The position numbers and the translations under genes were made by a program. DNA of 64,000 nt, from assembly GCA_963726195.1 (NCBI GenBank), contig CAVSBO010000003.1, forward strand, positions 576,001 through 640,000, given 5' to 3'. Origin of the DNA: Candidatus Thorarchaeota archaeon (GTDB lineage: Archaea > Asgardarchaeota > Thorarchaeia > Thorarchaeales > Thorarchaeaceae). Below, in pieces: positions 6,700 to 33,557 of the stretch. Below the pieces are notes generated by a model. The model was not told the DNA's origin and made no database searches. It saw only the letters and a list, made by a program, of their open reading frames with translations. Numbering within the stretch: the stretch's first letter is position 1; the number at the start of each line of letters is the position of its first letter.

Positions 6700-6700
6700 T

Positions 6701-7161: not shown

Positions 7162-8067
7162 TTGGACATTTTGCCGAAAGTATACTCCGAAGTCGGACTC
7201 TTTTCGTCCGATCCATACTCTCCTCGCGTGCAAAGCTTAACCACGGCATTTCAAAGCTTGGGAGTTGATACAACCCAGGTAATGCCCTGGAAGGTTGCAC
7301 GGACCGGCTCGACAAATATGCATAGTATCATGATAGACGGCAAGGACCTGACGGACCTAGACTTGATGCTCGTGCTAGACCTTGGCGCTACTGATATCGG
7401 GGCATTTTTCAATCGCGTGGGATTACTCTCGGCCTTGGCAGAACTAGGTGTGGAGATTGTGAACTCGGTTTCTTCGATACTTCTCATGCGGAACAAAGCC
7501 GAGACTATGCGGAAGCTAGTTTCTGCTGGGCTCCCCGTTCCGGAGACCCTCATCACGGAGTCAATCGACCACGCAGCTGAGTTCGCGAAATCGCACATCC
7601 CCTGCGTACTGAAACCCATAACTGGCTTCGGAGGGGAGGGCGTTCAGCTCATTGAACGCGAGTTCGACCTTGAGAACATCCATGACTACCTCAAGGTTCA
7701 CAACCAGTATCATGGAAAAGGAGCCTTTCTTCTTCAAGAGTACATCCGAAATTCCGGGTACGATATTCGCGCCCTCGTTGTCGAGAATGAGGTTATCGCG
7801 ACAATGCAGAGAGTAGGAGGAGAGGGCATCACTAGAAACATCCATGCAGGCGGCTTGCCGCGTCGAAATGAGGTAGATGTCACGGACCTGGCAGTTAGGG
7901 CGGCGAAGTCGGTTCGGGGTAGGCTCGTAGGAGTCGATCTCATTCCAGATGTCGACGGCCAACTCTGGGTCTTGGAAGCAAACGCCACACCGGGCTGGTC
8001 AGGCTTGCAGCAAGTTACGAATTTCGACATTTCAAGAAGGATAGCCCAAGTCTTTTGTCGCCGCTAG
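7162..8067 (+). CDS. RimK family ATP-grasp alpha-L-glutamate ligase (CofF/MptN/LysX-like)
   Basis: RNKAET, LPVPET, VLKPITGFGGEGV, LQEYI, DIRALVV, NIHAGG, GVDL and EANATPGW motifs. Confidence 0.92.
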   Translation: MDILPKVYSEVGLFSSDPYSPRVQSLTTAFQSLGVDTTQVMPWKVARTGSTNMHSIMIDGKDLTDLDLMLVLDLGATDIGAFFNRVGLLSALAELGVEIVNSVSSILLMRNKAETMRKLVSAGLPVPETLITESIDHAAEFAKSHIPCVLKPITGFGGEGVQLIEREFDLENIHDYLKVHNQYHGKGAFLLQEYIRNSGYDIRALVVENEVIATMQRVGGEGITRNIHAGGLPRRNEVDVTDLAVRAAKSVRGRLVGVDLIPDVDGQLWVLEANATPGWSGLQQVTNFDISRRIAQVFCRR

Positions 8068-17117: not shown

Positions 17118-17733
17118 CTGCGTGACTAGCCTCCAGACGCTTGGAACAGGGAGTCCCAAGCAGTGCTGCGGAATGCGACACACCCTGACAAATATCCCCA
17201 GCGCATCACGCGGAGCAGTATAATGCGAATCTCTACCAGCGTCTTGGATACTATGGAGCTCCCGAAATAGAAAATGCACTCTATTATTATGAATTCTTGA
17301 CACCAACAGGTTATGACATGCGTTACGATATACTCATTACGGAGTTCCTCGATTATTCAGCATTCAGTCGTGATTACTAGAGTGTGAAGTCAGGAGATCC
17401 ATGAAAACAACTCAAAATACCTACTAGCCCAGGCGCGCTTCTACGGCCTCAATGCACCGTAGGGCAGCACGCTAGCGATATGCCCACAGACTCTGCAAAC
17501 CCTTTCGATTCTCCGAATGCAAGGTGGTATCACAGGGCCTGCACTTCTCCGTAATCCCGTTGTTTGTACGGCCATCTTGTACCCCCGATGCTATGAAAAA
17601 GCATCCTAATGACTCTACTGCATCTCAGCGTTCCTTTGGCATTCGCTTGGGTCTTCTCTGGTTCTATACATGTCCACGACGTTGCATCCTAACACCCAAG
17701 AATCCAGTAAGGAGTTGTGATCATGGTGAAGAA

Positions 17734-18486
17734 ATGATAGCCAAGTTAGAGGCTCAGCTGCTTTCGCTCAGCGCAGTTCGCAGAAACGGCGTCGGCACGG
17801 TGGATGTCACAGGCCCACTTCAAGTGATGTTGAACAACGGAGACCGTTGCATCGTCAATGCAAGACTCCGATATCATGGGCCAGACACTAGTTCGTGGCT
17901 TGCGGTGGTAGTCGGTCTCAGGAGTCGAATTCTCGCCCCATTCAGCAGGTTCGACAGCGAGAGAAACCAGTTCTTGCCTTGTGACATCCCCGGTCTGGTC
18001 CCCGCTTTAGCTCTCACGGTGGCCCATCAGGATTGCGGACTCGCAGTGAGTGCCATAGCACATGATACATTCACCCACCTTGTCCTTGTGTTCGAAGGAG
18101 ATGTAGCCGCCAAGGGAGGTAATCTGAGATCGCTCGCCACGTCTGTTTGGAGCTTCATGAAACGTTGGACAGACTGGACGGATGTATTGCTGGCCACTGC
18201 TTCGCGTGATCCATCAGTAGCTCAGTGGAACGTGGACTGGCGTGAATTCCTCGCTGGAGAGTCAGGGTTCGTGACCATGCCCTGGTTCAAACCGATGAAT
18301 TACTCAGAGAGAGCTCTTGGGCTAGAGACAATCGTGGCGGCCTCTAAGTCTCTCTTGGCATCTGTTCTCAGCCAAGCTCAGATGGAGGATTCTGCAATTC
18401 GAACACTCACTTCTTGGCTGTATCAACTCGCACCACTTGTAGAGATTGTCGGGGGAATGGAAGCGGCAGAGGAGGCTGAAGTCTAA
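17734..18486 (+). CDS. Hypothetical protein (first gene of the recombination/repair operon)
   Basis: Long ORF with ATG 17734 behind GGTGA; Trp-rich WREFLAGESGFVTMPWF segment; no recognised family. Confidence 0.7.
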   Translation: MIAKLEAQLLSLSAVRRNGVGTVDVTGPLQVMLNNGDRCIVNARLRYHGPDTSSWLAVVVGLRSRILAPFSRFDSERNQFLPCDIPGLVPALALTVAHQDCGLAVSAIAHDTFTHLVLVFEGDVAAKGGNLRSLATSVWSFMKRWTDWTDVLLATASRDPSVAQWNVDWREFLAGESGFVTMPWFKPMNYSERALGLETIVAASKSLLASVLSQAQMEDSAIRTLTSWLYQLAPLVEIVGGMEAAEEAEV

Positions 18487-18487
18487 C

Positions 18488-18955
18488 ATGATGTGTGAAG
18501 ATGAATGTCGAAACCTTCCGAGATTGACTGTAGAGATCATGGGGCCCTCATGGATAGCCGGAGCAGTGACCGGCATCAAAGCGTCCAGAAGACGAAGCAC
18601 GGATTGGATTTGGGAATGTTTCGTCGAGGAGTTGTATGACACAGTCGAGCGGATGGGAGGAATTCAACCAGCCGAACCAGCCAGCTCACCGGCGGACGAG
18701 GACGGCTTCGCGGGCTCAGCATACGACACGCTGGGGGGTTACGTGAGCACAGCAGGCGAAATCCGTTCTCAGGGACTCTACTTCAGTCTCTCTCCGAAAC
18801 ACTATGAGAACGTTATGAGCCTGCTTCCGGACTTTGTGATGCTCAGGGCAAGAGGTGGTCTCATTGTGCCACACTATGAACTACGTTCCTTCCTGAATCT
18901 CGTGCCTGTGAACGGGCCGTTGTTGGACCAACTAGCCGAGGGGGGCATGCAATGA
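18488..18955 (+). CDS. Hypothetical protein
   Basis: Starts 1 nt after the previous stop; its stop overlaps the RadA start (ATGA). Confidence 0.7.
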   Translation: MMCEDECRNLPRLTVEIMGPSWIAGAVTGIKASRRRSTDWIWECFVEELYDTVERMGGIQPAEPASSPADEDGFAGSAYDTLGGYVSTAGEIRSQGLYFSLSPKHYENVMSLLPDFVMLRARGGLIVPHYELRSFLNLVPVNGPLLDQLAEGGMQ

Positions 18956-20028
18956 CAGAGCTTGAGGCGGTATCAGGAGTCGGGCCTGCAGTTGCCAAGA
19001 AACTGCGAGAAGTGTTTGTGACAACAGCTGAACTTCTAGCTGTGCAGAATCATGTGGACTTGCAGAACAAGACCAAGATGGGAGAAGGCACCGCTCTGAA
19101 GATCATACGAAACGCCAGACAATTGGTTGGGCTTTGCGGTTTCAAATCCGGTCTCGAAATCGAGCAAGAGATGTCGAGCAAGCCTAGGTTGAGTGTGGGA
19201 ATCGACAAGGCAAATGCAGCACTTCTTGGCGGAATTGAAACAGGTTCGGTCGTGGAGTTCTACGGTGCTGCCCGAAGTGGGAAGACACAGTGGTGCGGTC
19301 AACTTGCTGTTATGGTTCAGCTACCCAAGGAAAAGGGAGGACTTGAAGGCCGTGTGCTTTGGCTGGACACGGAGAGCTCCTTCAAACCATGGATTATCCG
19401 GGCAAACGCAGTGCGGTTTGGTCTGGACCCGGATGTTGCCTTGGGAAACATAGGTCATGCTCACATCGTAATGACTGAACAGATGACGCAGCTGTTTGAG
19501 AATATACCGCAGCTGTGCGCGGAGCAAGACTACAAGCTCGTAGTGATTGACTCATTGACTGGACTGTTCAGAGCTGAATACACCGGGCTTGAGCTACTGA
19601 GAGTGAGGCAGCAGGAAATGAACAGCCTCCTCAATCTGATGAGACGAACTGGTACCGCGACTGGCACAATCTTCTGCTACACCAACCAGGTCATGGCGAG
19701 CATGGGGACATTCAGGTCGAACCCGAACTCGCCCGTTGGCGGGCACATACTCTCGCACGCTTCTGACTATAGGTTCTACGTCAAGAAGAAGCTGAAGGAT
19801 GTGAGGGGTCTTCAGCTTCAAGATAATGCTGGAATACCCGAATTCGATCTTGATGTTGTCATTGGTTGGGGAGGGTTTTACACAGATGCGAAAACGAAGA
19901 AGAAACTCGAAGCAGACGTTCTAGAGTATCTTAGGAAAACCGGCTGGAACCCTGAGATCGCAGAGAGTGGCGAGGACTCTGAGGAAGTAAAGGAAGAGAC
20001 TGAGGAGATTGCGGAGGAAAACGAATAG
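18952..20028 (+). CDS. radA: RadA/Rad51-family recombinase (divergent paralog with acidic C-terminal tail)
   Basis: N-terminal HhH (VSGVGPAVAKKL), polymerisation-like FKSG, GGIETGSVVEFYGAARSGKTQ, VQLPKEKGGLEG, LDTESSF, LVVIDS, FRAEY, RQQ, TNQV and PVGGHILSHAS. Confidence 0.85.
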   Translation: MTELEAVSGVGPAVAKKLREVFVTTAELLAVQNHVDLQNKTKMGEGTALKIIRNARQLVGLCGFKSGLEIEQEMSSKPRLSVGIDKANAALLGGIETGSVVEFYGAARSGKTQWCGQLAVMVQLPKEKGGLEGRVLWLDTESSFKPWIIRANAVRFGLDPDVALGNIGHAHIVMTEQMTQLFENIPQLCAEQDYKLVVIDSLTGLFRAEYTGLELLRVRQQEMNSLLNLMRRTGTATGTIFCYTNQVMASMGTFRSNPNSPVGGHILSHASDYRFYVKKKLKDVRGLQLQDNAGIPEFDLDVVIGWGGFYTDAKTKKKLEADVLEYLRKTGWNPEIAESGEDSEEVKEETEEIAEENE

Positions 20029-20048
20029 TGCTGGCCAAAGAGAGAGGC

Positions 20049-20474
20049 ATGTTCCGCATATATCAGTGCCCTCGATGTCGAAACATTGGATTTGCCCAAG
20101 TCGAAAGCGAGGAGTGTGTTTCACGATGCAGCCTGTGTCAAGGGCCCATTGTGCATATGCCCGCCATGCAGTATGCTGCGACCATTCAGGAGGCAGAGTC
20201 GTACGTCAAAGAGGCCGTAGCCGGATCGAAGCTGAAGCCAAGATCCGCAGGCAGCCTACGAACGATAGGGCTGAAGAAGCGAGTGTTCAACATAATTGAA
20301 GCTCTCGTGGACATGAACAGGGGTTTCCCAGTAACGCTGGACGAGGTTCTTCGTGAATGCACAGATGCCGGCATAGATACGGATAGGGCAACGGACTTCA
20401 TTGAAGCGCTTCTCACTGAAGGAACTCTCAGTGGAGACAAGCTCGGAATGAAACCAGCAGGGAGGCCTTCGTGA
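20049..20474 (+). CDS. Zn-ribbon plus winged-helix protein (DUF5817/MCM C-terminal-like)
   Basis: CPRC...CSLC zinc ribbon followed by a VTLDEVLRECTDAGIDTDRATDFIEALLTEG wH domain. Confidence 0.65.
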   Translation: MFRIYQCPRCRNIGFAQVESEECVSRCSLCQGPIVHMPAMQYAATIQEAESYVKEAVAGSKLKPRSAGSLRTIGLKKRVFNIIEALVDMNRGFPVTLDEVLRECTDAGIDTDRATDFIEALLTEGTLSGDKLGMKPAGRPS

Positions 20475-20475
20475 G

Positions 20476-21102
20476 ATGTCCGACACCGAGCATACAACGA
20501 CACCCATCTGGGTAGCGCCCACGCCCCCGAATGTCGCAGGAAGCTCTCTCATAAACTTGGCCAACCTGCTTCTAAGAGAGACAAACAACCGGGTCACAAC
20601 GCTCCGACAATGCGATGGCCCGAATCCGGAGCTCTTCATCGTTTCAAGAGTAGATTGGAAGGATTCCGACCCAGAGAAGCCCATGCTGCCTCAGTTGCCA
20701 AAGATTCTTTCTCTGCTTGAGACTTTGCGTGAGACGAAAGGCGTGCCTCACGAGATATTCTTGGATAGTAATGATGGTGTCGCAGTCTACTTGCCAACTG
20801 GATCAAGGGTTTCTGACCTGCCGCGGAACCCAAAAGAAGCCCTTCGGGTTCTCATGGCTCTCGTCCATGACACCGTCGCGAATATGCTCTCAACAATGCA
20901 AGATGTAGAAAACTGCTTCTGGATTGCCGCTCGCAGAAAGGGGTTCAGCCCTGAGATAGTCCAGAGAATGGCACTGAAGGAGCAACACTACGACTCGCCT
21001 GCGCTGGTTAGGGAGTTTCATAGAATATTGAGGAAGTACTTCTCGATTCGTTTTCACATTCAGAGGAGCGAGTCATGCCTGTACGTTGAGGAGGAAGACT
21101 GA
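20476..21102 (+). CDS. Hypothetical protein
   Basis: 208 aa ORF coupled to neighbours (TGATG overlap with the helicase). Confidence 0.7.
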   Translation: MSDTEHTTTPIWVAPTPPNVAGSSLINLANLLLRETNNRVTTLRQCDGPNPELFIVSRVDWKDSDPEKPMLPQLPKILSLLETLRETKGVPHEIFLDSNDGVAVYLPTGSRVSDLPRNPKEALRVLMALVHDTVANMLSTMQDVENCFWIAARRKGFSPEIVQRMALKEQHYDSPALVREFHRILRKYFSIRFHIQRSESCLYVEEED

Positions 21103-23058
21103 TGGCAACTGTGAACGGTCCTCTCCGATACTTTCCATATACGCCCAGGCCGTACCAGGACCGGGCCGTTGCATTCGCCGCTCAAGTATTCTCATCCAAA
21201 TCGGTGGGACTTCTCTCTGCAGATTGTGGAGTGGGAAAGACCATCGCATCTCTTTCAGGCTACCTCGCTGCGCGTGCAGACGATGGCGAATCAAGGTTGA
21301 TTGTTCTCACCCGGACACACTCACAAGCTCGCGTATTCGAGAATGAACTAGTGACACTAAGACGCCTTCTTCCTTCTCTGACTGCCACGACAATCCAGTC
21401 GAGGGTCCATACCTGTCCAATAAAGGAGCAGGTTGGGTCAGTGTCTCTCACGGGGTTCATGAGAGCATGTGCGAATCTGATCAGGACAGGCAATTGTACT
21501 CATTACTGGGCCTTCTACAGGAAAGGGGATGGTAGAACTCAGATAAGGGACGGGGTTCAGCACGAAGTAGACGACCTGCTCGACTCCGGTGTTGTCACCC
21601 GGGACATTGTCGATGATCGTGCACGTGACATGGCTGTTTGCCCATATGAACTGATGAAACATTGTGCTAGGGAGAGCCGCATCGTGATAGGCCCCTATAG
21701 CTACCTGTTTCGCGCCCGTGTACGTGATGCGACTCTCAGTTCGCTGGCTACGAGCCTAGAGAAGCTCGACGTCATAGTCGATGAAGCTCACAATCTTCCA
21801 GGTCATATTCTGGAATCAGAAGCGGCCAAATTGAGTTGGGACGATCTCAAATGGCTGAAAGAGAACTCTGCTGAAATTGCCAAGGATTCTAGCGTGAAGT
21901 GGTTGGCCCAAGCCACGAACTTCCTCTGGGAGACAGTGACGATTGCCCTTGACGGATTGAATTCACGCAATGAGAAGGTACTTGACAAATGGGACGTGGC
22001 TCCAAGGTTCGTGGACGAGAACGGCTTGCGGCTTGTGAGTGCGGCTGACACGCTACTTGGAGACCCGGATGCTCTGTCGACCGTTGAGACTCCCTTCGAC
22101 AGACTGATTGAGTTTCTACTCGCAGCATTACGGGCGGCGAAGAGCGACGACTGGCACATATCAGTCGAAACTCGAAAATCGTTTCAGGAAGAACAGAGCC
22201 ATCCGGCTTGCGAACTCGTGATCAGGCCGCTGAACTCTGCCGGTCTTGCCGCGCCCGTGTTGAGGGGTGCGCGTTCTGCCCTTCTAATATCCGGCACTCT
22301 GAGACCTCTCGAGTACTATGCGAGACAGCTAGGTATAGCCAAACCACTCTCAGAGGACCTAGCGAGTCCCTATCGACGTGGGACAAGACTCATACTGGTT
22401 GACAAGAGTGTGACTACCAAATATGAAGCTTAGAAACGATGAACTCTGGCGTCGAATGGCTCAACGAATCCAAACCGCTCTCTTGTCACTGCCCGCAAAC
22501 AAGAGCGCTCTCATAGCCTTCCCGAGTTATGCGATTCTGCATGAAGTCCTCAGCTATGGGATAGACACAGGATATCGGGGGACGATTGTAGAGAGTCCGC
22601 GAGAGCGAATAGAGAACCTTGTGGAAGCAATCCTTGAAGGTCCAAAGGCCGTTTTTTGCGTCTATGGCGGGAAGTTCAGCGAGGGCGTGGATTTGGCTCG
22701 AGACGGTTCGAGCCTACTCGAAATGATAGTCGGTGTGGGGTTACCGTTTACGCCACCTAGTAGCTACTTGGAGGCACAGCGGAATTGGCTCGACGCAAGA
22801 TTCGGTGAGGGCACGGGGTACTTCTATGGCTCAGTCATTCCGTCCGTAAGGCAGGTTCTGCAGCTGATTGGCCGATTGAGAAGATCGCCGGAGGATTCAG
22901 GCGTAGTAATCCTACTTGACAATCGTTTCCTAAGGTACACATCTGTCTTGGGCGAGGACATGGTATCTGACATCTGGCCATTTGCAGACCTCGAAGAAAT
23001 GAGACTAGCTATTTCTGAGTTCCAGAGACAGAGGGAGGTATGCACGATTGCGTCTTGA
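21102..23058 (+). CDS. XPD/Rad3/DinG-family Fe-S DNA helicase (frameshift at ~22428)
   Basis: Q motif FPYTPRPYQ, motif I GVGKT, TRTHSQ, four Fe-S cysteines (HTCP, RACA, GNCT, VCPY), DEAH and SGTL. The second ORF has FPSY, GGKFSEGVDL, VGLPF, QLIGRLRR and LLDNRF. Confidence 0.9.
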
Positions 23059-23650
23059 TTCAGTTCGAAATGAGTGGGTCCTGCTGTCGGTGCTACTCTT
23101 GTTTTGGTCCTACAAGTCAGTCACAGAGACTGGCATTCCCATCTCGGAACTAGTGTGGCTTGCCGGTCTAACAATCACAGTGGCAATCATGGTGATTCTC
23201 AAAGGGACGAACCGGAAACCACTCGTTTTGTGGAACGACCCCGATGGAATCCTGATGCTGGTGAGACCTTGGAGAGTAGAAGCATGCGCCGCCAGACTGA
23301 TGACAAGCGTCCCGTTGGGAATAGACCTCACTCGTTCTGCCTGGCGGGTATTGCAGTCAATGCATCCCGCAATGTCGGATGGCAGGAGTCGTTCACTGAG
23401 ATTCTTTGTTTGCAGGCCTCTAGGACAAGGGCCTTCACGTGTTGGCATCATCGTGGCGCGATCAAGATTCAGAATCGGTAACAGTGGAAGAAGGAGCGCG
23501 GCACTTTCGGATAGTGTTCTGCAAGATGCGAGAATCCTTGAGGGTGCAATGAAGGCAGCTTATCCACATATGCCCATCGAGAAAGCCGGCTTGCCCGATA
23601 TCATGATGGTTGTCCAAGGAGGAGTCCAATCCGTTGCAGAGCTCGAGTAG
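23048..23650 (+). CDS. Hypothetical membrane protein (2 N-terminal TM helices)
   Basis: Hydrophobic WVLLSVLLLFWSY and LVWLAGLTITVAIMVIL; GGAGGT RBS; overlaps the helicase stop. Confidence 0.7.
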   Translation: MRLDSVRNEWVLLSVLLLFWSYKSVTETGIPISELVWLAGLTITVAIMVILKGTNRKPLVLWNDPDGILMLVRPWRVEACAARLMTSVPLGIDLTRSAWRVLQSMHPAMSDGRSRSLRFFVCRPLGQGPSRVGIIVARSRFRIGNSGRRSAALSDSVLQDARILEGAMKAAYPHMPIEKAGLPDIMMVVQGGVQSVAELE

Positions 23651-23942
23651 TCAGAGAACCGGGTTGACCCTGCCTCACAACGTGAAACCCGAGGCATTGA
23701 TGGATGCCCTCACAAAAGGTCATGGGTATCAATGGATTACCCTCGCAAGGCGGCCCGTCCTGTTAGTGTACGGTGAAGCGACTTCTCAAGAAATGCCCCA
23801 GCTTCTCTTTACGGGAAACACCACGCTCGTTGTTTCGAGTGCTGACCCAGCTTATGTGGAGCGTCTAAGAAGAATGCTGCAAGTACTCGAGCAGCAGGAA
23901 GAGAAGCAGTTCCTAGCACAGGAGGCCAAGAGCGGTGAGTAA
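23634..23942 (+). CDS. Small hypothetical protein
   Basis: TTG behind GGAGG; overlaps both neighbours. Confidence 0.6.
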   Translation: MQSSSSQRTGLTLPHNVKPEALMDALTKGHGYQWITLARRPVLLVYGEATSQEMPQLLFTGNTTLVVSSADPAYVERLRRMLQVLEQQEEKQFLAQEAKSGE

Positions 23943-26271
23943 AGGGTTAGTGGTGGGTCCCAAGCCCGAATATGACCCCTTTGGCGAAAGGACACAGTCT
24001 CCACAGGAGACATCTCCAACCGGAGAAATCAGGTGGGACAACAGAACTGCAGGCAGGTCCTTCAGACAATTAGGTGCAATGGGAATACTCATAGCTGTGC
24101 TTGGCACCGCATATCCTGAAGGTCTTCTCATTGGAACCGCGGCGATTCTCGCAGGCATCTTCTTACTATCTCGATTGAACGGACCTATGAAGATCGATGG
24201 CTGGATAACGTTGCAGCAGGGCGACGTTAGTCTTTCTTCGTCTGCTGGCAACCTTGAAGTCACCGATGTGAGGGGACGCAAGTATGCTGTCGGCATGACC
24301 TTGGACTCTGCTGGTGTCCACCTACTCGGAGACATGGGAGCACTCGTGCGGGCCGCGGACGACTCTAGCGGACTGTGTCTGTTGGTGAGTTTGAAGCCGA
24401 AAGATGGCAAAGCAATCCTGCAGGAAGACAAGATTAGCAGGTCCACTTGCAGGTTCTTGAATTCTCTTTCTGAAGAGGCGCTCAAGGGGTACTTCGATTC
24501 TCGTGGGGGTCTGTGGGCAGTCCATGCGACACTTATCGGATACGCAAGAGAACAAATCGGATTGCCTGTTCTTGAGTCCGCTTTGAAAGCGGCTGTGCCC
24601 GACCGCGGCTGGCAGACCATGAAGCCATTCGAATTACGTTCGCACATTGAAGAGGATGATGTCGTCGCCGACAATTCATCTTTCTATGGGACCGGGGAGG
24701 AGTTGTCCAAATGGCTGGTCCAGATGGCGACAGAACTATCGTCAGAAGTGGGCACAAACGTCCCGGCGGAATTCGTTGCGCCAATCAGAGAAAGAGAAGC
24801 AGACTACAAGCTAGGGTTCGTAATCAATCCTGAGACATTGCGGCTAGGTCCTCGAGTTGGGCTGTCCCACGGGGATCTCCTAGGCGGACTGATGGTTTGC
24901 GGGGGAACCCAGCCCGAAAGAGGGCTTGTATTGTCCCTTCTCACGGCGGAACTCCTGCAATCAGGCAAGAGAATCATCCTTGTGACCAATGACCGTGGCA
25001 CATTATCCTTGACAGGTCTGTGTGATGGCGCAGTCGGCCTTGAGCTTGGAAAGGACTTGGTGTTGAATCCTGCAGACCCAGAAGGAATGCAGAGAACAGA
25101 GTACGTGCCGCAGCTCATCGCGGCGCTCGAAGTGCTGTGTGGCACTGAGCTACGAACTGCAGTCGAGCTTGAGATTGCCGTCAACAGGGCGGCGAGTCTA
25201 GGAAACGGAACTGTGGCCGACATTGCGATGGCTGATTCCGCGGCAATGGGCACGACCACTGAGACTGATGCTTCGATTGGGACCACTGTGTCGAAGGCAT
25301 CACTGCTCGGCTTTGATGCTGTCCGCTCATTGCGTCAAGGCTCAGGGGCCAATGCATTCTATGGCACACAGACTGTATCGCTCCAGACGATGGCTCAAAC
25401 ACCCCTAGTTGTCATCGTGATGTCCCTGGAATCTTCGGCACTTCAGAGATTCGCTTGGGACCTGTTGTCAATAAAGGTCAGTGGAATGAAACCAGACTCC
25501 GATTTGGTTGTCATCCTTGATAACCCAGAGAACCTGCGAGTCAGGAATAGACCATTTGGAAATCGTGATGTTCGAAGCGAGAACATAATTCGCAAGCTGA
25601 TAATCAGAGGACCATTACTTGTTGCTTTGGACCATCCTGCTGACATGGCCGTCGGAGCCATCGGCAACCTTTCTTCATGTCTATCACTTCGACTCCGCGA
25701 TAGTGCAGACCTGAAAGTTGCTTCCGATCTTTTGGGTCTTGGAGTCATCGCCACGGGACTACACAGCAAGGCCAGACAATCATCCAGAGAGACATCCTTC
25801 CTGCGTGTCATGCCGCCGGACGTGGCGGTTCTGTCACGCGGCAGATCGGAGATTGGTATCCCAATTAGGTTGGACAAGACACCAACATCCCTCGGAACAC
25901 CTCCTCCACAGGAATTGTCGCGCAGGATATCTCGGTTTTCGCCGAGCTCCAAGGACAAAGAGACTCAGGCCAAGACTCTGCTTGAACAAGTCGCAGGCGG
26001 AGACACGGAGTTGGCCCGGAGTGTCCTCCGTTTGTTGATGAGGTACGAGCCTCTCACTGAGGAGGCCGTTCGGAAATTCATTAGGTCGGACAAGCGTCAT
26101 GAGAATGCGGACGTCGAGGGAATCTTGGCCCGCTTGGAAAGGGCGAACATGATTCTTCGTGGGCACGAAGTGCACGGCGGTGTATCTTACACTAACTTCC
26201 GTGTTACGATGAAAGGAACAATGGCAATGCGGCAAGAAGTCCCAGAAGGTGGTCGCGATGTTGGTCACTGA
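23935..26271 (+). CDS. Membrane-anchored HerA/VirB4/CedB-like (DUF87) ATPase homolog with degenerate Walker motifs and C-terminal wH domain
   Basis: Two N-terminal TMs. VGLSHGDLLGGLMVCGGTQPERG at the Walker A position, ELGKDLVLNPADP, VVILDNPENL at the Walker B position, and ALDHPADMAVGAIGNLSSCLSLRLRDSADL. Confidence 0.65.
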   Translation: MSKGLVVGPKPEYDPFGERTQSPQETSPTGEIRWDNRTAGRSFRQLGAMGILIAVLGTAYPEGLLIGTAAILAGIFLLSRLNGPMKIDGWITLQQGDVSLSSSAGNLEVTDVRGRKYAVGMTLDSAGVHLLGDMGALVRAADDSSGLCLLVSLKPKDGKAILQEDKISRSTCRFLNSLSEEALKGYFDSRGGLWAVHATLIGYAREQIGLPVLESALKAAVPDRGWQTMKPFELRSHIEEDDVVADNSSFYGTGEELSKWLVQMATELSSEVGTNVPAEFVAPIREREADYKLGFVINPETLRLGPRVGLSHGDLLGGLMVCGGTQPERGLVLSLLTAELLQSGKRIILVTNDRGTLSLTGLCDGAVGLELGKDLVLNPADPEGMQRTEYVPQLIAALEVLCGTELRTAVELEIAVNRAASLGNGTVADIAMADSAAMGTTTETDASIGTTVSKASLLGFDAVRSLRQGSGANAFYGTQTVSLQTMAQTPLVVIVMSLESSALQRFAWDLLSIKVSGMKPDSDLVVILDNPENLRVRNRPFGNRDVRSENIIRKLIIRGPLLVALDHPADMAVGAIGNLSSCLSLRLRDSADLKVASDLLGLGVIATGLHSKARQSSRETSFLRVMPPDVAVLSRGRSEIGIPIRLDKTPTSLGTPPPQELSRRISRFSPSSKDKETQAKTLLEQVAGGDTELARSVLRLLMRYEPLTEEAVRKFIRSDKRHENADVEGILARLERANMILRGHEVHGGVSYTNFRVTMKGTMAMRQEVPEGGRDVGH

Positions 26272-28463
26272 GACTGACATACCAAGCTACGTTCAGAAAG
26301 TGCTTGGTGGCATCGGCCTAGCACCGCGGGGCGTCCAAAAGGCGGCCATTGACAACGGGTTGCTCGAAGGAAAGAGCATCATGGTATGCAGTCCGACTGG
26401 TTCAGGCAAGACTCTCGTTGGCGAAATGGGTGTTCTTCGAGCTGTGGTTTCTGGTCGAAAGGGGCTGTATATGGTACCACTTCGGGCTCTTGCGCTTCAG
26501 GTCGCATCGATATTCAGAGAGAGGTACGGAAGAATCGGCATCAGAGTCGGAATGAGCACTGGAGACTATCAGACCGACGGATCGGAGTTGGCAGAATGTG
26601 ACGTTGTTGTTACAACATATGAAAGAGCCGACTCTCTCCTGAGGCATCAAGCGTCTTGGATAACCGAGATAGGCACGATCGTGATTGACGAGGTTCAGAG
26701 TATTTCAGAACCAAGAAGAGGAGCCCGCCTCGAGAGCACGATTATTCGATTCAACCGGCTTGTCGACGACCTACAAATCATAGCTCTCTCGGCTACGATA
26801 GCAGCTCCCGATGAACTGGCAGAATGGCTTCGATGCGATCTTATCGAGAGTGACGAGAGGCCCGTTCCGCTCCACTGCAAAGTCCTATGCTGCAATAGCA
26901 AACAGGGAATGGTCAAGGACCTAGTTATGACTACTGTGCAAGGGAACGGACAAGCAATCGTTTTCCATCGAACCCGAAGAGAAGCTGAAGTTGAGGCGTT
27001 CCGTCTAGCGTCAGATGTAGGCCGTCAGACTCACAATAGCAGAGAGGAACCGCCTCGACACCGAGCTGGAGTCTCTCGAGAACTGGGCAGTCAGAGTACC
27101 GTCGGAATTGAAGACTGTGATGCACGATGGTACCGGCTTCCACCATGCGGGTCTCAACGCTAGAGTCCGTGATGTTGTTGAACGGCTGTTTCGCACCGGG
27201 CTCATTAGGGTGGTTTGTGCCACAACAACTCTCGCCGCCGGCATGGACCTGCCAGCTCGCACAGTCATAGTCACATCAGTGATTTCGCCTGAGAACAACG
27301 GAGAACTCCTAAACGCCAATAGGGTGCACCAGATGCTCGGCAGAGCAGGACGCCCGAGCCATGACAAGATTGGAGTCGGCATCATACTTGCAGGAAGCGA
27401 GGGCGAAGCTGACGAGCTTGAAGTGAGGTACTTTGAAGACAGAACTGGAGAAGCTGCCGAAGAAGTTCTAATCCCGAAGTATGACAGAGCCAGAAGTGTC
27501 CTAGGTTCTCCGAGTTCGACCACTGAGCAGCTTTTGGTTGCCCTCGATGCAATGGGAGAAGCGTCACTGCAGGAAGTCGAGGACGGAATAATGAGCCAGT
27601 CATTCTTGACGTATTGCGGTATTAGGGACACCCATTCTCCCGCGCGCCTGATCAATCTCGGGGAAATTACGGCTCAGGCCGCAATTGAACACCATGCTCT
27701 GCCCGATTCGCTTCGTGCAGCCAGACAGAAGCTGCTGGGTGCTGTGACTTTCAGAGAGAAGGACGAGACCGCCATAGGTGCCATAGTCACGGACTGGGAC
27801 CGCACTCAATACACATGTCGGTATTCCACTCGGCTATCAAGCAGTGGACTTGTGGATGGCCCACAATGCTCCTGCGGCCGGCCCATTGACCCCCAAGGCA
27901 TACTCTGTACGCACCTGCTTGTGTTGGGTCTGTCAGCGGCCGCGGAGCTGGGTAGCTTGGCAGACTATGTCATTCCCTTGTCTCTCAGCGAATCAAGTCC
28001 ACTTGGTGTCTTGACCAAGCTCGGACTAGTGGAGGGCGCGGAAGAGGGAAAGCTTAGGCCAACTAAGCTTGGGCGTTTGGTCAACCGGTTGTATCTAGGT
28101 CTGCCAACAGCCAGGGAAATGATTGCCCTTCTGCCTACAGTGGAGGACAGTACTTCCCTGCTCTGGCTCGTCAGGCACTTGGTTTCACTGGAAACGGGCA
28201 TGGCGCTAACCGAGCAATTCGAACAGCTAATCGCTGCATTAGCGTCTACTGACACAACAATCGCGGATTTGGCAAGGATTGCGGAACTTCACGAAGGAGA
28301 CGTATACGGTCTCATAGAGACAGTGCGATGGTTGCTGCATTCCATTGACGCCGTTGCGGCCCTCGGTGGATTGTCGAATGTCTGCGGAATGACAACCCGG
28401 TTGTCAGATGCTATCGAATCTAGAATGAAAAAGGGTGAATCCAATGACAACAACGGAAGCTGA
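26258..28463 (+). CDS. Ski2-like (Hel308/HELQ-type) DNA helicase with inserted SWIM zinc finger (frameshift at ~27029)
   Basis: SPTGSGKT, PLRALA, TTYERADSLLR, IDEVQ, LSAT, RPVPL, FHHAGL, ATTTLAAGMDLPA and QMLGRAGRP; SWIM CSC-x11-CTH; PTKLGRLVNRLYL. Confidence 0.88.
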
Positions 28464-30219
28464 CACACCAATGGATATTCCCGAGAAGACCAAGCAATCT
28501 CCTGGAACAGCCAATCAAACGGCAGCGCAGGAAGAGACCAGACGAGAAGCCAGTGACATCACTGCCATCCTAAAGAGCTCGGGTCACAGGGTTCATGTCT
28601 ACTCAAATGGGATCATACTAGGAGTCCGACTAGAGGCAATTCCCGGGACCCACAGCGTGCATGTTGACATCGCGCACGTGGTTGACCTGCGTTCAGGGAA
28701 AGTCTGGAAGACCACTACCGCTATGATGGCTGCGGTATTGGGACTTGTTAACAAATCGCTCCAAAGCATTCTCGAGGACATCGGTCTTGAGGAATCGCTG
28801 AAAGAGAAGCTATTGACTATGCCTTGGGGTCGAATTCGCCTGTCCACGCTTTTGGCACAATCAGGGAAGACCTCCTCGATAGCAATTGAGACGAGATGGG
28901 CGTATGTTATCTACAACGAAGTCCGACCCAAAGCAGACCTTTCCTGGCTGACAGATACAAAGAGAGTACTGAGTATCACCGACTTTGCTCTTTCGCGCCA
29001 GAGCGACATAAGGGCGTCAGCTGCGAAGCTGAGAACCATAATAGCCACTAACAAGACCAGCATGATTCGGGGTGCTGTGGGAAACGGGTGGTATGGCGTG
29101 CTAGCCCTTGTCGCCTCATTGGGTGGACTGATGACTGCCTCAGCGGTCGGCCTAACGCATCCAACCGGAATGGCCATTCCGCTCGTCTTTGCAGGAGTGG
29201 CGGGAGCCGTTGCCATCGACCTTCTATTCACATCAAGAAAGAGGTTCAAAAAACTCGTAAGCGTATTGAAGACCGAGAACCTACGTGCGTCTGAAGTGGG
29301 AGACTCTGTCAGAGCCAAGGAATCGGCTGCAAAGAACCGAGATCTGCTAGAGCTATTGGAAGACCTCACTTTCGTGGTTTCTCCCCTGATGGTGATGGCG
29401 GCTGAAGCACTGCAAGCAGGAGAAGTTGACCGCGCTGTTTCGTCAGCCTCTTGCGTTCTGGATGAGTGTGTACGGCTCGCGCCTTACTCTGGAGACAACG
29501 TGGAACCTATCCTTGGGAGAACAGACGAAGGCCTGAGGAGGTTTCTCGGATTCATGAAACGTCTCGGGGCCACATCAGAAGAAGAGACCTTGGCGGTTGC
29601 CTACGTGGGACTCACGGGACATCTATCGAGTCCGATTGGATTCAGTGAGGTTGTCGCCCACATGACATCACTGACCAATGCGCTCTATGATGTTGGAGTG
29701 CTCAGCCAAGAAGCAAAGGACAAACTCGACAACGTCATGAACACGTGGGCCATGAAGAAGTACGCTGGTGAACTTGAAAATAGCCTTCGAGAACCAGATG
29801 AACCCGAGCCGGTTCCATCTTCGACGCGGGCAGAAGTAGGGACTCAACCAGAACTCACCCACCCTGTGGCGCGCAAGAGGCAAACCGACAGACAAGGTGA
29901 TGTCAAACAGACGTTTGGGCTCATCCGTGATTCTACAACCACTCCTGAAGACTCGCCGCCCATAGAGAAAGTGAAAACACCTGTTGTGTTGCCGATGCAG
30001 GAGTCGCTTGACAGAGCGGATCCTATGAAGTCTACCGGCCGCGACGACCGAGGTCCATCTGAGAAGGGAGGCGAAGTTGTCAAGGTTACGATTCGCAAGA
30101 GAGACAACAGGATTACTCAACTGCAGAGTCAGAAGCCTCTCGCAGAGGCTGTGGTCGGACAGCCTGCCAGCGGACATGCCGCGAAAGGAGAAGAAAGCAA
30201 TGAGGACCCAGACGTGTAG
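28444..30219 (+). CDS. Hypothetical membrane protein (central TM hairpin, disordered C-terminal tail)
   Basis: Hydrophobic WYGVLALVASLGGLM...MAIPLVFAGVAGAVAIDLLF; P/E/K-rich C-terminus; overlaps both neighbours. Confidence 0.7.
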   Translation: MTTTEADTPMDIPEKTKQSPGTANQTAAQEETRREASDITAILKSSGHRVHVYSNGIILGVRLEAIPGTHSVHVDIAHVVDLRSGKVWKTTTAMMAAVLGLVNKSLQSILEDIGLEESLKEKLLTMPWGRIRLSTLLAQSGKTSSIAIETRWAYVIYNEVRPKADLSWLTDTKRVLSITDFALSRQSDIRASAAKLRTIIATNKTSMIRGAVGNGWYGVLALVASLGGLMTASAVGLTHPTGMAIPLVFAGVAGAVAIDLLFTSRKRFKKLVSVLKTENLRASEVGDSVRAKESAAKNRDLLELLEDLTFVVSPLMVMAAEALQAGEVDRAVSSASCVLDECVRLAPYSGDNVEPILGRTDEGLRRFLGFMKRLGATSEEETLAVAYVGLTGHLSSPIGFSEVVAHMTSLTNALYDVGVLSQEAKDKLDNVMNTWAMKKYAGELENSLREPDEPEPVPSSTRAEVGTQPELTHPVARKRQTDRQGDVKQTFGLIRDSTTTPEDSPPIEKVKTPVVLPMQESLDRADPMKSTGRDDRGPSEKGGEVVKVTIRKRDNRITQLQSQKPLAEAVVGQPASGHAAKGEESNEDPDV

Positions 30220-30883
30220 TCATTCCTTTCCGACCTTATTGAAAATCACAGGGCTGGTCCATGTTTGGGGTCCTGCAGGTGCTGGCAAGAGCCTGCTCGC
30301 CATCGCAATTGCGGCCGAGGCATCTCTCGACTCTCGTGTCGAGTGGATCAGCACAGATGGCAAATCATCTTTCATATCTCATCTGAAAAGAAACGTGCAA
30401 CACCGTGGGAGTGCTGCCAATGTTTTCGTCACAATGACGCACAACCACAATGAGGTGCGGCAGACCATTCTCGACCTTGTCACCTCTCTTGAAGGCATGA
30501 GTGCGTTGATTGTGGTCGACCCCTTGACACGTGTCGTGGACATGGCACGTTCCGAGCCTGTAATGTGGGGCCAAGAACTCATCGAAGAAGCCTTGCCAAC
30601 TCTAGCAGCCCTCGCAGCTGGCGGATCAATTGTGCTTGTTACGAGCGAGTGCAGGTCACTTGAGGAAGGAGAGAAGACGCCTGTTCATCACAAGACCATC
30701 AGACGCTGGGCGGACAACGAAATCCTCGTGCAGAGGGAAAAGGCCAGCATGTACTCGACAATCACCAGCATTGATCCGAAGTCTGGTGCACAGAAAGAAG
30801 TCGGCCGACTAAGACTCCTGGAAACAGGATTGATTGAGATTAGTATCTGTCAGCCCGGGTCAGAAACAAGGAGGAGCACTTAG
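30200..30883 (+). CDS. RadB-like RecA-fold ATPase (Rad51 paralog without N-terminal domain)
   Basis: VHVWGPAGAGKS Walker A, WISTD, LIVVD Walker B, VLVTSECR. Confidence 0.75.
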   Translation: MRTQTCSHSFPTLLKITGLVHVWGPAGAGKSLLAIAIAAEASLDSRVEWISTDGKSSFISHLKRNVQHRGSAANVFVTMTHNHNEVRQTILDLVTSLEGMSALIVVDPLTRVVDMARSEPVMWGQELIEEALPTLAALAAGGSIVLVTSECRSLEEGEKTPVHHKTIRRWADNEILVQREKASMYSTITSIDPKSGAQKEVGRLRLLETGLIEISICQPGSETRRST

Positions 30884-30886
30884 GAC

Positions 30887-31858
30887 ATGTTTGGAGGCAT
30901 TCTATGGAAAGGAATTGTGTTCGGCATGGCAGTCATGCTGGTCTTGACTGTCGGGACCGAACTCTTGGCATCAGTCGTGTCCGTCGTGGTGTCTGCCCGC
31001 CGCGGCGACCTAATTCCTATTGTCACGGTCTTTCTCGGTACTCTCTTCATTTCCCTAATCCTGCGGCGACTCAAGAAGCACTCTCCGACCAAGTTACTCT
31101 TGTCAATCTTGGTCTACGGAACAATCGGATACGCAGCCGTGGTTTCATTCATAGCTGTTCTTCCATGGGGCCTTCTTCCATCTCTCATGTCCGCGTCGAT
31201 GACAATACTTGGCTTCTCGGTTGCAGCGACTCCCACGCGGTTTGGAGCGTATCGTTCGCAGACCAAGCTTCGTTCTCTGGCACTGCGTACAGACAACCCA
31301 TCAGGTCGAATTACATCATCGGCGATTGCTGCTCTGTCCGACGCCCTCACGGAACAGGCAAGGGTTGTAATCATTCAGGAAGGGGACAGGGACAAGGTCG
31401 TTCAGCTCATGAAGGAGCGACCCCTTCTGCCCGTATCGATTACTCGCCTTGCCGACTGTTATGCAGTTGTCGTCACGTCCCCAAATTCCGACGAGGTTGT
31501 CTTTCGCAGAGCAATCGACACATTGTCAGAGTTTGGCATATCCCGTGTGAAGCGCGCACGGCATTTGCTCGCAGAGGCTATCCTCATGCTTCCGCTCATT
31601 GACGAGTCATATGGTTTCAGCATGCGTGAGTACCGAGTTGTAAGGGACGACACGACGATGACGCACGTGATTTCTCAATGGCCCGAAAGACTGACTATCT
31701 TTGCGACCAAAGAAGGTCTCGGGGCTCTGGTTCCGGAACGGGCCGCCACAGGTCTGAAGACTGAGCAACTCCCGCGCGGCCTTGAAACCGACGTGGTTCT
31801 GTTTAGGAATTACTCTCTGCTCCAAGGAGATGATGAGTCTGGATCACAAGCCGCTTGA
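30887..31858 (+). CDS. Hypothetical membrane protein (about 4 N-terminal TM helices plus soluble domain)
   Basis: Hydrophobic first ~115 aa; AGGAG upstream; 3 nt after the previous stop. Confidence 0.72.
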   Translation: MFGGILWKGIVFGMAVMLVLTVGTELLASVVSVVVSARRGDLIPIVTVFLGTLFISLILRRLKKHSPTKLLLSILVYGTIGYAAVVSFIAVLPWGLLPSLMSASMTILGFSVAATPTRFGAYRSQTKLRSLALRTDNPSGRITSSAIAALSDALTEQARVVIIQEGDRDKVVQLMKERPLLPVSITRLADCYAVVVTSPNSDEVVFRRAIDTLSEFGISRVKRARHLLAEAILMLPLIDESYGFSMREYRVVRDDTTMTHVISQWPERLTIFATKEGLGALVPERAATGLKTEQLPRGLETDVVLFRNYSLLQGDDESGSQAA

Positions 31859-32561
31859 AGAGATTGAAGTGGACACTACTCCTCGTTTTTCGTTAGTGCC
31901 CAAAACACTAGACGCGGTGTTGGGAAGACTGCTCGCGCCTAGCCAAGTCAGCCTGCTGCATGGTCCCAACCGTGCGCCACTGACAGCGCTTGCACACTTG
32001 GTTACTGTATGTGCAGCCAAAGCCGACGGAAAACGTTCCGTCTATCTGCATGCCGGGAACAACTACAGTCCGACGTTGGCAAGATCGTTGTGCGGCCGCA
32101 ACCAAGACGCTTCGGACATCCTTCAGCGCATAGCAGTCGGAAAGGTGCTTGGTCTGTCAGACATAGAGCACGAGCTATCACTGATTCGCGACGCAGAACG
32201 CGTTCAGTTGGTTGTGGTTGATAGCCTCACGTCAGTCCTTGACTTGAGCGATAGCAGCACCGGTCCAGGAAGACAAAGAAAGCTCTTTCACGCGCTCGAA
32301 ACAATGAGGGAATTCGTCAATAACAGTTCGGCCCACTTGATGATGACAGATCACTCCTCACCAAGTTGGGGCTCAGACGAGCCTTCTCCAATCGGTGGGA
32401 ATGTTGTAGCACACAACGTTGACAGCGTCATACGCGTTGAGAGGTTGGACATCGCTTCCGACGACCTAATCAGCATAGTTGTGGAGAGATGTCCTCTTCC
32501 CAGTCCGCCAACAGGTGTGGTTGTCAGGTTCTCAGCAAAGAGCATCAGTAGCATCAAGTGA
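31830..32561 (+). CDS. Catalytically degenerate RadA/Rad51 paralog
   Basis: LDAVLG, Walker A position LHGPNRAPLT (no GKT), VYLHAGNNYSP, ILQRIAV, LVVVDSL, RQRKL and PIGGNVVAHNVD. Confidence 0.75.
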   Translation: MMSLDHKPLEEIEVDTTPRFSLVPKTLDAVLGRLLAPSQVSLLHGPNRAPLTALAHLVTVCAAKADGKRSVYLHAGNNYSPTLARSLCGRNQDASDILQRIAVGKVLGLSDIEHELSLIRDAERVQLVVVDSLTSVLDLSDSSTGPGRQRKLFHALETMREFVNNSSAHLMMTDHSSPSWGSDEPSPIGGNVVAHNVDSVIRVERLDIASDDLISIVVERCPLPSPPTGVVVRFSAKSISSIK

Positions 32562-32570
32562 GGTCTCTAG

Positions 32571-33557
32571 ATGGGCGTGAAGAAATTCAGCGTGATACCG
32601 TGGATCTGGGTCGGTTCAGACGAAATCTTGGGAACGATTGCTATTGATGCGCCGAACTACATCACGCGAAGAATCTCAGTCTTCAAGCAGAAGAACAAGT
32701 ACAAAGACCGAGTACCTCTTGAGCACCTTCTACTGGGATTCGGCCTTATCAGGACTGCACTCCTGAACAAGGTCTTGCCAGTCTTGATTTTCGATGGACC
32801 GCCAGAATCATTGAAGAGGGAACCAAATCCGGAGCTCGTAGCAAGAGCTCACGAAGTCTATTCTGAGTACTCGCAAGACGGCGACCCATACAACGAAGAA
32901 GTCGCCAAGAGCCTTTCAAGTAGCCCAGCGCTACGCATGTACTTCGCGGCCCAGCACCTCAGAGACTTGGGCCGTGCGATGGGTGTGCCCACTTTGACTG
33001 CATCATCTGAGGCGGAAATGCTGTGCGCGGCAATGTGCAGAGACTCCCTTGTCAAGACAGTCGTATCAAATGATGCAGACGCCATGCTCTTTGGAAGCCC
33101 TCACGTGACGAACCACATGGAGTTATCTCGAGGCCGCATCTGTCGAGCCACCCTTCATGACCTTGAAGAATCATTGTGTCTCGGCCTGGACCAACTGAGG
33201 GACTTGGCAGTTATCTGCGGCTGTGACTTCAACAATGAGGGCATCAAAGGGGTGGGTCCTCATCGGGGAGCCATCCTGTTGAAGAGATACGGGAATCTGG
33301 AAGCTGTGTTGAGAGCGAAAGGGTATGGACGAGCTGAGAGAGAACCGCTGCTTCTTGCGCGTGAAGTCTTCGAACAGACTGCGTACATTTCGCTGGCAGG
33401 TCTCGACATCGCACTTAGACCGCCCATGGTCTCACGGCTGGTTTCGATTCTTCTGCCTTGCTTTGGTCGCCAAAGAAGCGAGGATTCCGCTGAACAGATG
33501 GTCAGCATCTGGCGGGATTTTGGAAAACATCAAGCCACTTTGGAGCAGTGGGTGTAG
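32571..33557 (+). CDS. FEN1/XPG-family 5' flap nuclease paralog with C-terminal PIP box
   Basis: MGVK, IAIDA, IFDG, SEAE, SNDADAMLFG, GCDFN, H3TH GIKGVGP and terminal QATLEQWV. Confidence 0.9.
   Translation: MGVKKFSVIPWIWVGSDEILGTIAIDAPNYITRRISVFKQKNKYKDRVPLEHLLLGFGLIRTALLNKVLPVLIFDGPPESLKREPNPELVARAHEVYSEYSQDGDPYNEEVAKSLSSSPALRMYFAAQHLRDLGRAMGVPTLTASSEAEMLCAAMCRDSLVKTVVSNDADAMLFGSPHVTNHMELSRGRICRATLHDLEESLCLGLDQLRDLAVICGCDFNNEGIKGVGPHRGAILLKRYGNLEAVLRAKGYGRAEREPLLLAREVFEQTAYISLAGLDIALRPPMVSRLVSILLPCFGRQRSEDSAEQMVSIWRDFGKHQATLEQWV

Follow-up and report, generated by a model that had tools for sequence, protein, structure and literature searches.

A conserved Thorarchaeota operon that joins paralogues of recombination and repair enzymes to membrane proteins and a VirB4-like protein without the Walker A lysine

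Among the described systems closest to the locus reported here are Ced, found in Sulfolobales, and Ted, found in Thermoproteales, domesticated type IV secretion systems (T4SSs) that are chromosomal and combine a transmembrane (TM)-anchored protein of the VirB4 fold with small membrane proteins, the Ted loci also adjoining the recombination genes herA and rad50 (PMC9905601, PMC11823120). Here we describe an operon of a Candidatus Thorarchaeota archaeon that occupies positions 17734-33557 of a 64,000-nucleotide (nt) window (the whole stretch of DNA analyzed, positions 576,001 to 640,000 of contig CAVSBO010000003.1, GenBank assembly GCA_963726195.1) and that shares these features, with its product g10 as the TM-anchored VirB4/HerA-like protein. 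It differs from Ced and Ted in that g10 lacks the Walker A lysine, and with it the motif GxxGxGK[ST] of an active ATPase; in that no VirB6/CedA-like pore of 6-7 TM helices, VirB2-like pilin or VirD4-like CedD is recognized in it; in that it apparently encodes no extracellular parts and carries dedicated recombination paralogues inside the same operon; and in that it belongs to Asgard archaea, not Thermoproteota. As regards the VirB2-like pilin (CedA1/TedC), the operon contains no small open reading frame (ORF) with two TM helices only, and almost no intergenic space; such a pilin could be encoded elsewhere. On the balance of the evidence, it is more likely than not that the operon has been inherited vertically in this Thorarchaeota family and that it encodes a second, specialized homologous-recombination apparatus at the inner face of the membrane.

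VirB3 and VirB4 of bacterial T4SSs are found both as separate and as fused proteins. Like the VirB3-VirB4 of these systems (TrwM/TrwK of R388, 8rtd and 7o43; 4ag5), g10 starts with a TM hairpin, continues with an N-domain and has its P-loop domain at the C-terminal side, but it is ~13% identical, its ATPase motifs are eroded, it has an extra C-terminal winged helix, and no other T4SS component accompanies it. The archaeal end-resection operon HerA-NurA/Mre11-Rad50 likewise combines a ring protein of the HerA/FtsK superfamily with recombination functions; HerA, however, is active, soluble and paired with NurA, whereas g10 is membrane anchored, apparently inactive and nearer to VirB4 (Z 28 vs 24), and the operon contains no NurA, Mre11 or Rad50. 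The eukaryotic comparators are HELQ with the RAD51 paralogues (BCDX2) and the SWIM-containing Shu complex. The operon, too, joins a Hel308/HELQ helicase, a SWIM zinc finger, one active and one inactive RecA-fold accessory protein and a Rad51-type recombinase, but in eukaryotes SWIM lies in a separate protein and no part is membrane linked.

Two of the components, Fen1-2 and a second RadA clade, have been described in isolation. According to the main text of PMC12680538, Asgards have a divergent Fen1-2 that lacks part of a hairpin and sits on a long branch, placed next to eukaryotic Fen1 and treated as a replisome gene, a description that the operon nuclease fits in its deletion and long branch, and the main text of PMC12722695 describes two RadA clades in some Asgards. 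Neither main text mentions a shared operon of such paralogues with helicases and membrane proteins.

All genes between 17734 and 33557 lie on the + strand, as do all ORFs of any size that can be accommodated in a coherent gene model. There are 17 ORFs as assembled and 15 genes once two one-base breaks are read through, encoding RadA2, a RadB-like protein, a RecA-fold protein with a dead P-loop, XPD2, a SWIM-bearing Hel308, Fen1-2 and a Zn-ribbon/winged-helix protein, along with four proteins of the membrane and four soluble ones without a known family. The features are as follows (lengths in amino acids, aa; Fe-S, iron-sulfur; SF2, superfamily 2; AF2, AlphaFold2).

17307..17733, no strand: intergenic region between a divergent GH3-family gene and g01, presumed operon promoter
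17734..18486, + strand: g01, soluble, 250 aa; no Pfam, NCBIfam, PADLOC or PDB-profile match
18488..18955, + strand: g02, soluble, ~155 aa (ORF open from 18446); no family match
18952..20028, + strand: RadA2, second full-length RadA/Rad51 with an acidic C-terminal tail (Pfam Rad51, ~181-182 bits, and HHH_5 N-domain)
20028..20474, + strand: g04, 148 aa, Zn-ribbon (CxxC...CxxC) and winged-helix-like, the fold read from sequence only; no Pfam match
20476..21102, + strand: g05, soluble, 208 aa, part of a reduced version of the operon in a genome of the same order; no family or PDB-profile match
21102..23058, + strand: XPD2, Fe-S SF2 helicase, read through base 22431 (DEAD_2 and Helicase_C_2)
23048..23650, + strand: g08, predicted TM hairpin and cytoplasmic alpha/beta domain (hydropathy, AF2)
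23610..23942, + strand: g09, small soluble protein, 110 aa (80 aa from ATG 23700); sub-threshold Secretin_N match only
23935..26271, + strand: g10, TM hairpin, VirB4-type N-domain, P-loop domain and C-terminal winged helix (AF2, Foldseek, VIA)
26258..28463, + strand: Hel308-2, Hel308/HELQ-type helicase with a SWIM insert, read through 27029 (DEAD and Helicase_C)
28444..30219, + strand: g13, predicted cytoplasmic N-domain, TM hairpin 222-265, helical C-domain and acidic disordered tail (hydropathy); no family match
30200..30883, + strand: g14, RadB-like ATPase of the RecA fold, its Walker A (GPAGAGKS) intact (NCBIfam RadB, 31.5 bits, under the cut-off)
30887..31858, + strand: g15, four N-terminal TM helices (first 115 residues) and a predicted cytoplasmic domain of ~200 aa (hydropathy; eight orthologues aligned)
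31830..32561, + strand: g16, RecA-fold paralogue with a dead P-loop, GPNRAPLT, and a retained Walker B (Pfam Rad51, 29 bits; alignment)
32571..33557, + strand: Fen1-2, divergent flap endonuclease (XPG_I, 59.7 bits; best PDB match FEN1)

Neighboring genes abut or overlap almost throughout. There is a 1-nt gap between g01 and g02 (18486/18488), an ATGA overlap of g02 with RadA2 at 18952, a 1-nt overlap of RadA2 with g04 at 20028, a 1-nt gap before g05, a TGATG junction of g05 with XPD2 at 21102 and an 11-nt overlap of XPD2 with g08 at 23048. g09 overlaps g08 if it starts at TTG 23610 and lies 49 nt behind it if it starts at ATG 23700; further downstream, g09 and g10 overlap by 8 nt at 23935, g10 and Hel308-2 at 26258, Hel308-2 and g13 at 28444, g13 and g14 at 30200 and g15 and g16 at 31830, with gaps of 3 nt between g14 and g15 and of 9 nt between g16 and Fen1-2. 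An initial annotation, made from the letters of the sequence, had listed 15 consecutive, near-abutting + strand genes, four of them with TM segments; the ORF coordinates agree once the two breaks, which it had overlooked, are read through, its family assignments were borne out by Pfam and PDB searches, and hydropathy identifies the four membrane proteins as g08, g10, g13 and g15.

The block is bounded at its 5' end by a gap of 427 nt, followed by the divergent GH3-family gene, and at its 3' end by a convergent gene of 652 aa. Its GC content (0.52-0.54) shows no marked shift from that of its surroundings (0.49-0.53). Comparison of the region upstream of g01 across genera, at the level of 8-mers, revealed no conserved motif; a sigma-70/terminator scan, a tool not applicable to archaea, gave background levels, and an Rfam search of the window gave no match.

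RadA2 has the HhH N-domain, the RecA core with Walker A (GAARSGKT) and Walker B, the catalytic glutamate (DTE) and both L1 and L2 that define RadA/Rad51 proteins, as seen in alignment with canonical RadA, and it is archaeal RadA and eukaryotic RAD51 that it matches best in the PDB. A tree built from 24 RadA sequences of Asgards grouped the canonical copies in one short-branched clade (support 98/98) and the operon copies in another with long branches (100/99), to which the same-order version was sister, long-branch effects limiting what can be said of the deeper position of RadA2. Operon RadA branches were ~5-fold longer than those of the housekeeping paralogue. Because RadA2 falls outside the canonical Asgard RadA clade, it did not arise by recent duplication of this family's radA. 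Two further RecA-fold proteins are encoded downstream, g14, in which G24, G29 and K30 are invariant and which was aligned with RadA, and g16, with its dead P-loop. As an observation apart, some Asgard genomes are rich in RadA/Rad51-family matches (12 each in G160 and G365), several of them mid-scoring and full length; these lineages have a strongly enlarged RecA-fold family.

XPD2 has the features expected of an XPD/Rad3 protein: GVGKT, DEAH, motif VI and four Fe-S cysteines do not vary among five aligned sequences that include the canonical copy, the copy in the window requiring that one base be skipped at 22431. Hel308-2, whose best PDB match is Hel308 over the core only, retains motifs I and II (DEVQ/DEIQ) and carries an insert of ~110 aa with a conserved CxC...CxH SWIM signature. 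Its core motifs are present, but it lacks the C-terminal HhH domain 5 of canonical Hel308 and so does not conform to the standard Hel308/HELQ plan of two RecA domains with motifs I-VI followed by winged-helix, ratchet and HhH domains; judged by its sequence, it is a Hel308-derived variant and not a standard member. A eukaryote-specific affinity of RadA2 and Hel308-2 was also considered and is unsupported by the PDB scores, with no tree containing eukaryotic sequences to set beside them.

Fen1-2 retains all seven metal-binding carboxylates of FEN1, and no variation is seen at D26, D75, E147, E149, D168, D170, D219, Q321 or L324; it is also 8 residues short of the canonical copy through a deletion. 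Its C-terminus carries a conserved, PIP-box-like QxTLExW(V/F), the corresponding sequence in canonical FEN1 being QRSLTDYF, and the sequence suggests that Fen1-2 still binds PCNA. The operon enzymes, their catalytic motifs retained, are apparently functional. Every one of them is a paralogue of a housekeeping gene located elsewhere in the genome, where there are a higher-scoring radA (313 vs 182 bits), a fen1, an xpd of 659 aa and hel308-like genes of 741 and 881 aa. The initial annotation had proposed that these were divergent second copies, and the presence of all four canonical genes elsewhere in the genome agrees with this.

The two helicase genes are each interrupted in the assembly by one inserted base. 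XPD2 is represented by two ORFs, 21102-22433 and 22423-23058, with the insertion at 22431, and Hel308-2 by 26249-27163 and 27108-28463, with the insertion at 27029; in relatives, each is a single ORF (~650 and ~730 aa, respectively). An independent short-read contig, L045 (SRR18214449, 8272 nt, 99.0% identical), carries both genes intact, and its alignment with the window contains only two gaps, of one base each, exactly at the break sites. Codon differences between the two sequences are mostly synonymous (51 synonymous and 27 nonsynonymous overall; 15:6 in XPD2 and 10:5 in Hel308-2). Elsewhere in the same assembly, leucyl-tRNA synthetase is split into two overlapping frames of 326 aa (profile positions 6-279) and 670 aa (294-946) on contig C5 (L047:991-3893), and an Lhr-type (PRK13767) helicase into ORFs of 247 and 676 aa with a 4-nt overlap on contig C16 (L048:1110-3880), the latter by an assembly indel or a genuine split.

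Because the genes are intact in L045 and the leucyl-tRNA synthetase and Lhr genes are split in like manner, the breaks are most likely assembly errors, and on this reading the gene count is 15. That the operon is instead decaying in this strain, with both helicase genes true pseudogenes, would fit two genes each broken by a single-base insertion, neither of which lies within a long homopolymer. This is nevertheless very unlikely, given that over the ~8.3 kb shared with a 99.0% identical contig these are the only two gaps, that the codon differences are mostly synonymous in just these genes and that an essential synthetase appears broken in the same way. A genuinely split XPD with coupled translation, starting at ATG 22423 where it overlaps the stop, was considered and rejected in view of the intact gene in the 99%-identical contig.

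The protein on which comparison with T4SSs turns is g10. Hydropathy places its TM hairpin at residues 45-80. Its AF2 model (pLDDT 75.6) matched TrwK/VirB4 first in Foldseek (E 7e-14), followed by HerA, and with VIA-align the P-loop domain superposed best on T. pseudethanolicus VirB4 (4ag5; Z 28.1, root mean square deviation 2.6, 320 residues), ahead of DndH-C (25.1), HerA (24.1) and TrwB (20.9). Full-length TrwK aligned to residues 91-667 of g10, so that the N-domain is common to the two proteins. By sequence profile against the PDB, the only match for g10 was a defense HerA at E 0.15.

At the Walker A position, g10 reads GGTQPER, with G323, G324 and R329 invariant. No GK[ST] was present at this position in 24 g10 orthologues or in 4 TM-less Asgard homologues. 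A search of 1.84 billion representatives with the g10 profile recovered 532 clusters at E <= 1e-10; the lysine was absent from the ~125 best representative clusters, and a canonical GxTGxGK[ST] was found only among the weakest of the matches listed. Since the lysine is missing across the ~125 best clusters, we regard g10, from its sequence, as a long-standing pseudo-ATPase, and, since it is missing from every close relative examined, g10 cannot be a motor like CedB. Thus, of the HerA/VirB4/CedB-like translocase named in the initial annotation, the fold stands, with VirB4 as the closest match by both Foldseek and VIA, whereas the missing Walker A lysine speaks against the translocase. A large class of proteins of 1230-1340 aa from another large Asgard family (f9; representatives P0112-P0195) also contains a dead VirB4-like domain, in mid-protein at ~540-1100.

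In other Asgard families, the g10 homologue is 520-570 aa long and has no TM helices, and the ORF directly upstream of it (250-360 aa) does have them. This upstream ORF matches the g10 profile at positions 19-256 (E 1e-8 to 1e-13), and its C-terminal end matches the profile of g08 (E 7e-5 to 1e-3). g08 itself has a TM helix at 32-50 in addition to an N-terminal hydrophobic helix, followed by a cytoplasmic-type domain of ~140 aa; its AF2 model (pLDDT 79.8) matched only generic alpha/beta-sandwich folds (E ~1e-3), and an assignment as VirB8-like was dropped, with no NTF2 fold among the structure matches. In the models, g08 and the N-module of g10 have the same order of secondary-structure elements, and they share the motif ES-A-x-x-AA-x-P; direct comparison of the two by hhalign was weak (29 columns only, E 0.019). 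Because both profiles match the upstream ORFs of other Asgards, we infer that g08 and the g10 N-module are homologous, g08 being an extra copy of that module, and that Thorarchaeota have in one fused protein what other Asgards encode as adjacent N and C genes of the VirB4-like protein.

At least 8 further genera have all 15 genes in unchanged order between the same two neighbors, with protein identities of 30-65%, so the arrangement does not reflect chance, and the synteny that the initial annotation had put forward as a check on its proposal is found across the family. A genome of the same order has a reduced set consisting of RadA2, g04, g05, XPD2, g10, Hel308-2 and g13. Within the family, g10 was detected in 53 of 85 genomes; when five genomes scored as lacking it were checked, a contig of one, from the same genus, ended within the operon, with RadA2 (91% identical) and g05 present, and another had fragments, so that at least two of the five absences are contig breaks. 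Other Asgard families have, within a few kilobases, the dead VirB4-like protein as a split pair, a RadA paralogue of lower score, a SWIM-Hel308-like protein, a RadB-like protein and sometimes FEN, and their genomes retain canonical RadA as well; in the five Asgard genomes of other lineages that were examined, the module has a second RadA of lower score next to it or elsewhere on its contig. The presence of this core module in other Asgard families implies that the core is older than Thorarchaeota. At a locus of this kind in another Asgard family (L038, G149:C1:2527000-2546999, positions 5309-7975 and 11251-11766), an 888-aa M28-peptidase-like protein lies between the RadA paralogue and the split VirB4-like pair, with an Imm5-like immunity protein adjoining. 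A related-locus search of the genome contigs found no relative.

No sign of a mobile element was found: the window contains no tRNA and no integrase, no bracketing or att-like repeats were detected, and the flanks are ordinary genes whose synteny is shared across genera, which speaks against an integrated element with att sites, the alternative that the initial annotation had itself named. PADLOC returned only marginal, partial matches for 10 products, over short stretches (E 7e-4 to 0.03).

In all four membrane proteins, the TM helices are joined by short loops (4-12 residues in the hairpins) and followed by basic residues. By the positive-inside rule, this combination implies that their soluble parts are cytoplasmic and that nothing extracellular is encoded; the bulk of g08, g10, g13 and g15 thus appears to lie in the cytoplasm. 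The conserved blocks of g13 are 40-215 and 270-460. g15, the sole polytopic product, has no Pfam or NCBIfam match, and g01, g02, g05, g09, g13 and g15 have no Pfam, NCBIfam or PADLOC family match. A prediction of a complex of g13 (40-465), the g15 C-domain (118-323) and g14 scored 0.00 without controls, which says nothing either way.

The products without a known family are conserved together with the enzymes. Orthologues of g01 come first in the operon in eight relatives, with D37, D84, W169-R170-E171 and E176 invariant; those of g02 were found in five relatives, the alignment starting at residue 15; g05 has orthologues in nine relatives, including the same-order genome G025, and g09 in five. 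g04 is conserved in eight relatives and weakly in the same-order genome.

The cytoplasmic placement of the soluble parts, with nothing extracellular encoded, favors a tethered, cytoplasmic recombination complex, for which the following scheme can be drawn from the protein families. g08, g10, g13 and g15 would form a membrane platform with almost all of its mass in the cytoplasm, in which the dead VirB4-like protein might serve as scaffold or ring and might contact DNA with the winged helix at its C-terminus. On this platform, 5'-3' XPD2 and 3'-5' SWIM-bearing Hel308-2 would unwind or strip DNA and so prepare single strands; RadB-like g14 and inactive g16 would help to load RadA2, as Rad51 paralogues act as mediators; and Fen1-2 would trim the flaps left by strand exchange. 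The DNA might be imported DNA, an invading element or the organism's own chromosome at the membrane.

Several points weigh against this second, membrane-held recombination apparatus. The operon was not found in about one-third of the family's genomes, three of which (85-92% complete) have only canonical RadA, so that it is dispensable. Its long RadA branches could also reflect an arms race, as in defense systems, and both frameshifts could be genuine recent lesions in this strain. The coupling of the products is inferred from overlaps and conserved order, as opposed to direct binding or cotranscription, and the TM topology comes from hydropathy and the positive-inside rule. With six proteins lacking a family and the g04 fold predicted from its letters, key activities may be missing from the model.

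The initial annotation had proposed a DNA import or exchange system. In such a system, the TM helices of g15, g10, g08 and g13 would form a channel for DNA import or cell-to-cell exchange, the helicases and not the dead VirB4-like ring would pull the DNA in the manner of ComFA in competent bacteria, and recombination by RadA2 would follow immediately. The central place of a TM-anchored VirB4-fold protein in the operon is consistent with this, as are the facts that the archaeal importers have VirB4 homologues in CedB and TedB and that Ted loci carry herA and rad50 (PMC9905601), and incoming single strands would call for just such a set of two helicases with opposing polarity, recombinase and flap nuclease. 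The Walker A lysine, however, is missing not only from the Thorarchaeota proteins but also from the TM-less Asgard homologues and the best clusters, whereas CedB is thought to power Ced translocation (PMC9905601) and a second ATPase, CedD, is essential there (PMC11823120). Furthermore, no product matches Pfam VirB6/TrbL or a pilin, the hairpin loops leave no room for an extracellular domain, the sole polytopic protein has 4 TM helices where CedA has 6-7, and the bulk of the membrane proteins appears to be cytoplasmic. We regard DNA import as possible, but unsupported and, on present evidence, unlikely. Improbable, too, is the broader proposal that the operon is the most complete survivor of an ancient, Asgard-wide machine for recombining outside or partner-cell DNA at the membrane, a prokaryotic forerunner of sexual exchange built on paralogues (Fen1-2, the second RadA, the HELQ-like SWIM helicase and the Rad51-paralogue-like mediators) relatives of which later entered the recombination toolkit of eukaryotes.

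The same components could act on the cell's own chromosome alone, in fork restart and repair or in the processing of ends or dimers at a membrane site. XPD, Hel308 and FEN1 are fork and repair enzymes, Fen1-2 ends in the PIP-box-like QxxLxxW, and FtsK, which belongs to the same ATPase superfamily and is among the fold matches of g10, acts on chromosomes at the membrane; yet a far better conserved housekeeping set is already present, the operon is dispensable in some genomes and no replication or division gene is linked to it, which makes a maintenance role quite improbable. We give still less credence to a defense or conflict system at the point of entry, with helicases and nuclease dismantling foreign plasmid or viral DNA and RecA-fold proteins as sensors. 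The fivefold longer RadA branches and the patchy distribution would suit such a system, and Hel308-like and HerA-fold proteins occur in known ones, HamB, SIR2-HerA and DUF4297-HerA being among the sequence or fold matches. However, there is no significant PADLOC match and no toxin-type effector, the gene content is constant and not modular, the chromosomal position is fixed with the same neighbors across genera, unlike that of defense islands, and the comparison of close strains indicates purifying selection.

Downstream of the operon, positions 38149-44206 encode a protein of 1631 aa, whose Ig-like domains are of the Big_1, Filamin and macroglobulin types, and behind it an Ig-like protein of 412 aa, and are probably a giant surface protein locus; it is flanked by two large minus-strand proteins without a known family (33572-35530 and 44221-46302).

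A full-text literature search found no description of the operon, and for the gene set itself we found no published account. New here are the split and fused architectures of the VirB4-like protein, the paralogy of g08, the family-wide loss of the Walker A lysine, the link to Fen1-2 and the analysis of the frameshifts. The dead VirB4 ring, the SWIM-Hel308 and the six proteins without a known family are targets for biochemistry and structure determination. The operon also puts two published observations in another light: Fen1-2, for which the nearest kinship to eukaryotic Fen1 has been proposed, is encoded in a recombination and membrane operon and not with replisome genes, and the second RadA of the other Asgard lineages examined accompanies the module on its contig. 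What the family appears to have kept, beyond scattered paralogues, is a whole second recombination apparatus together with membrane proteins, its core common to other Asgards, and the way these organisms exchange and recombine DNA is relevant to how sex and the repair toolkit of eukaryotes originated.

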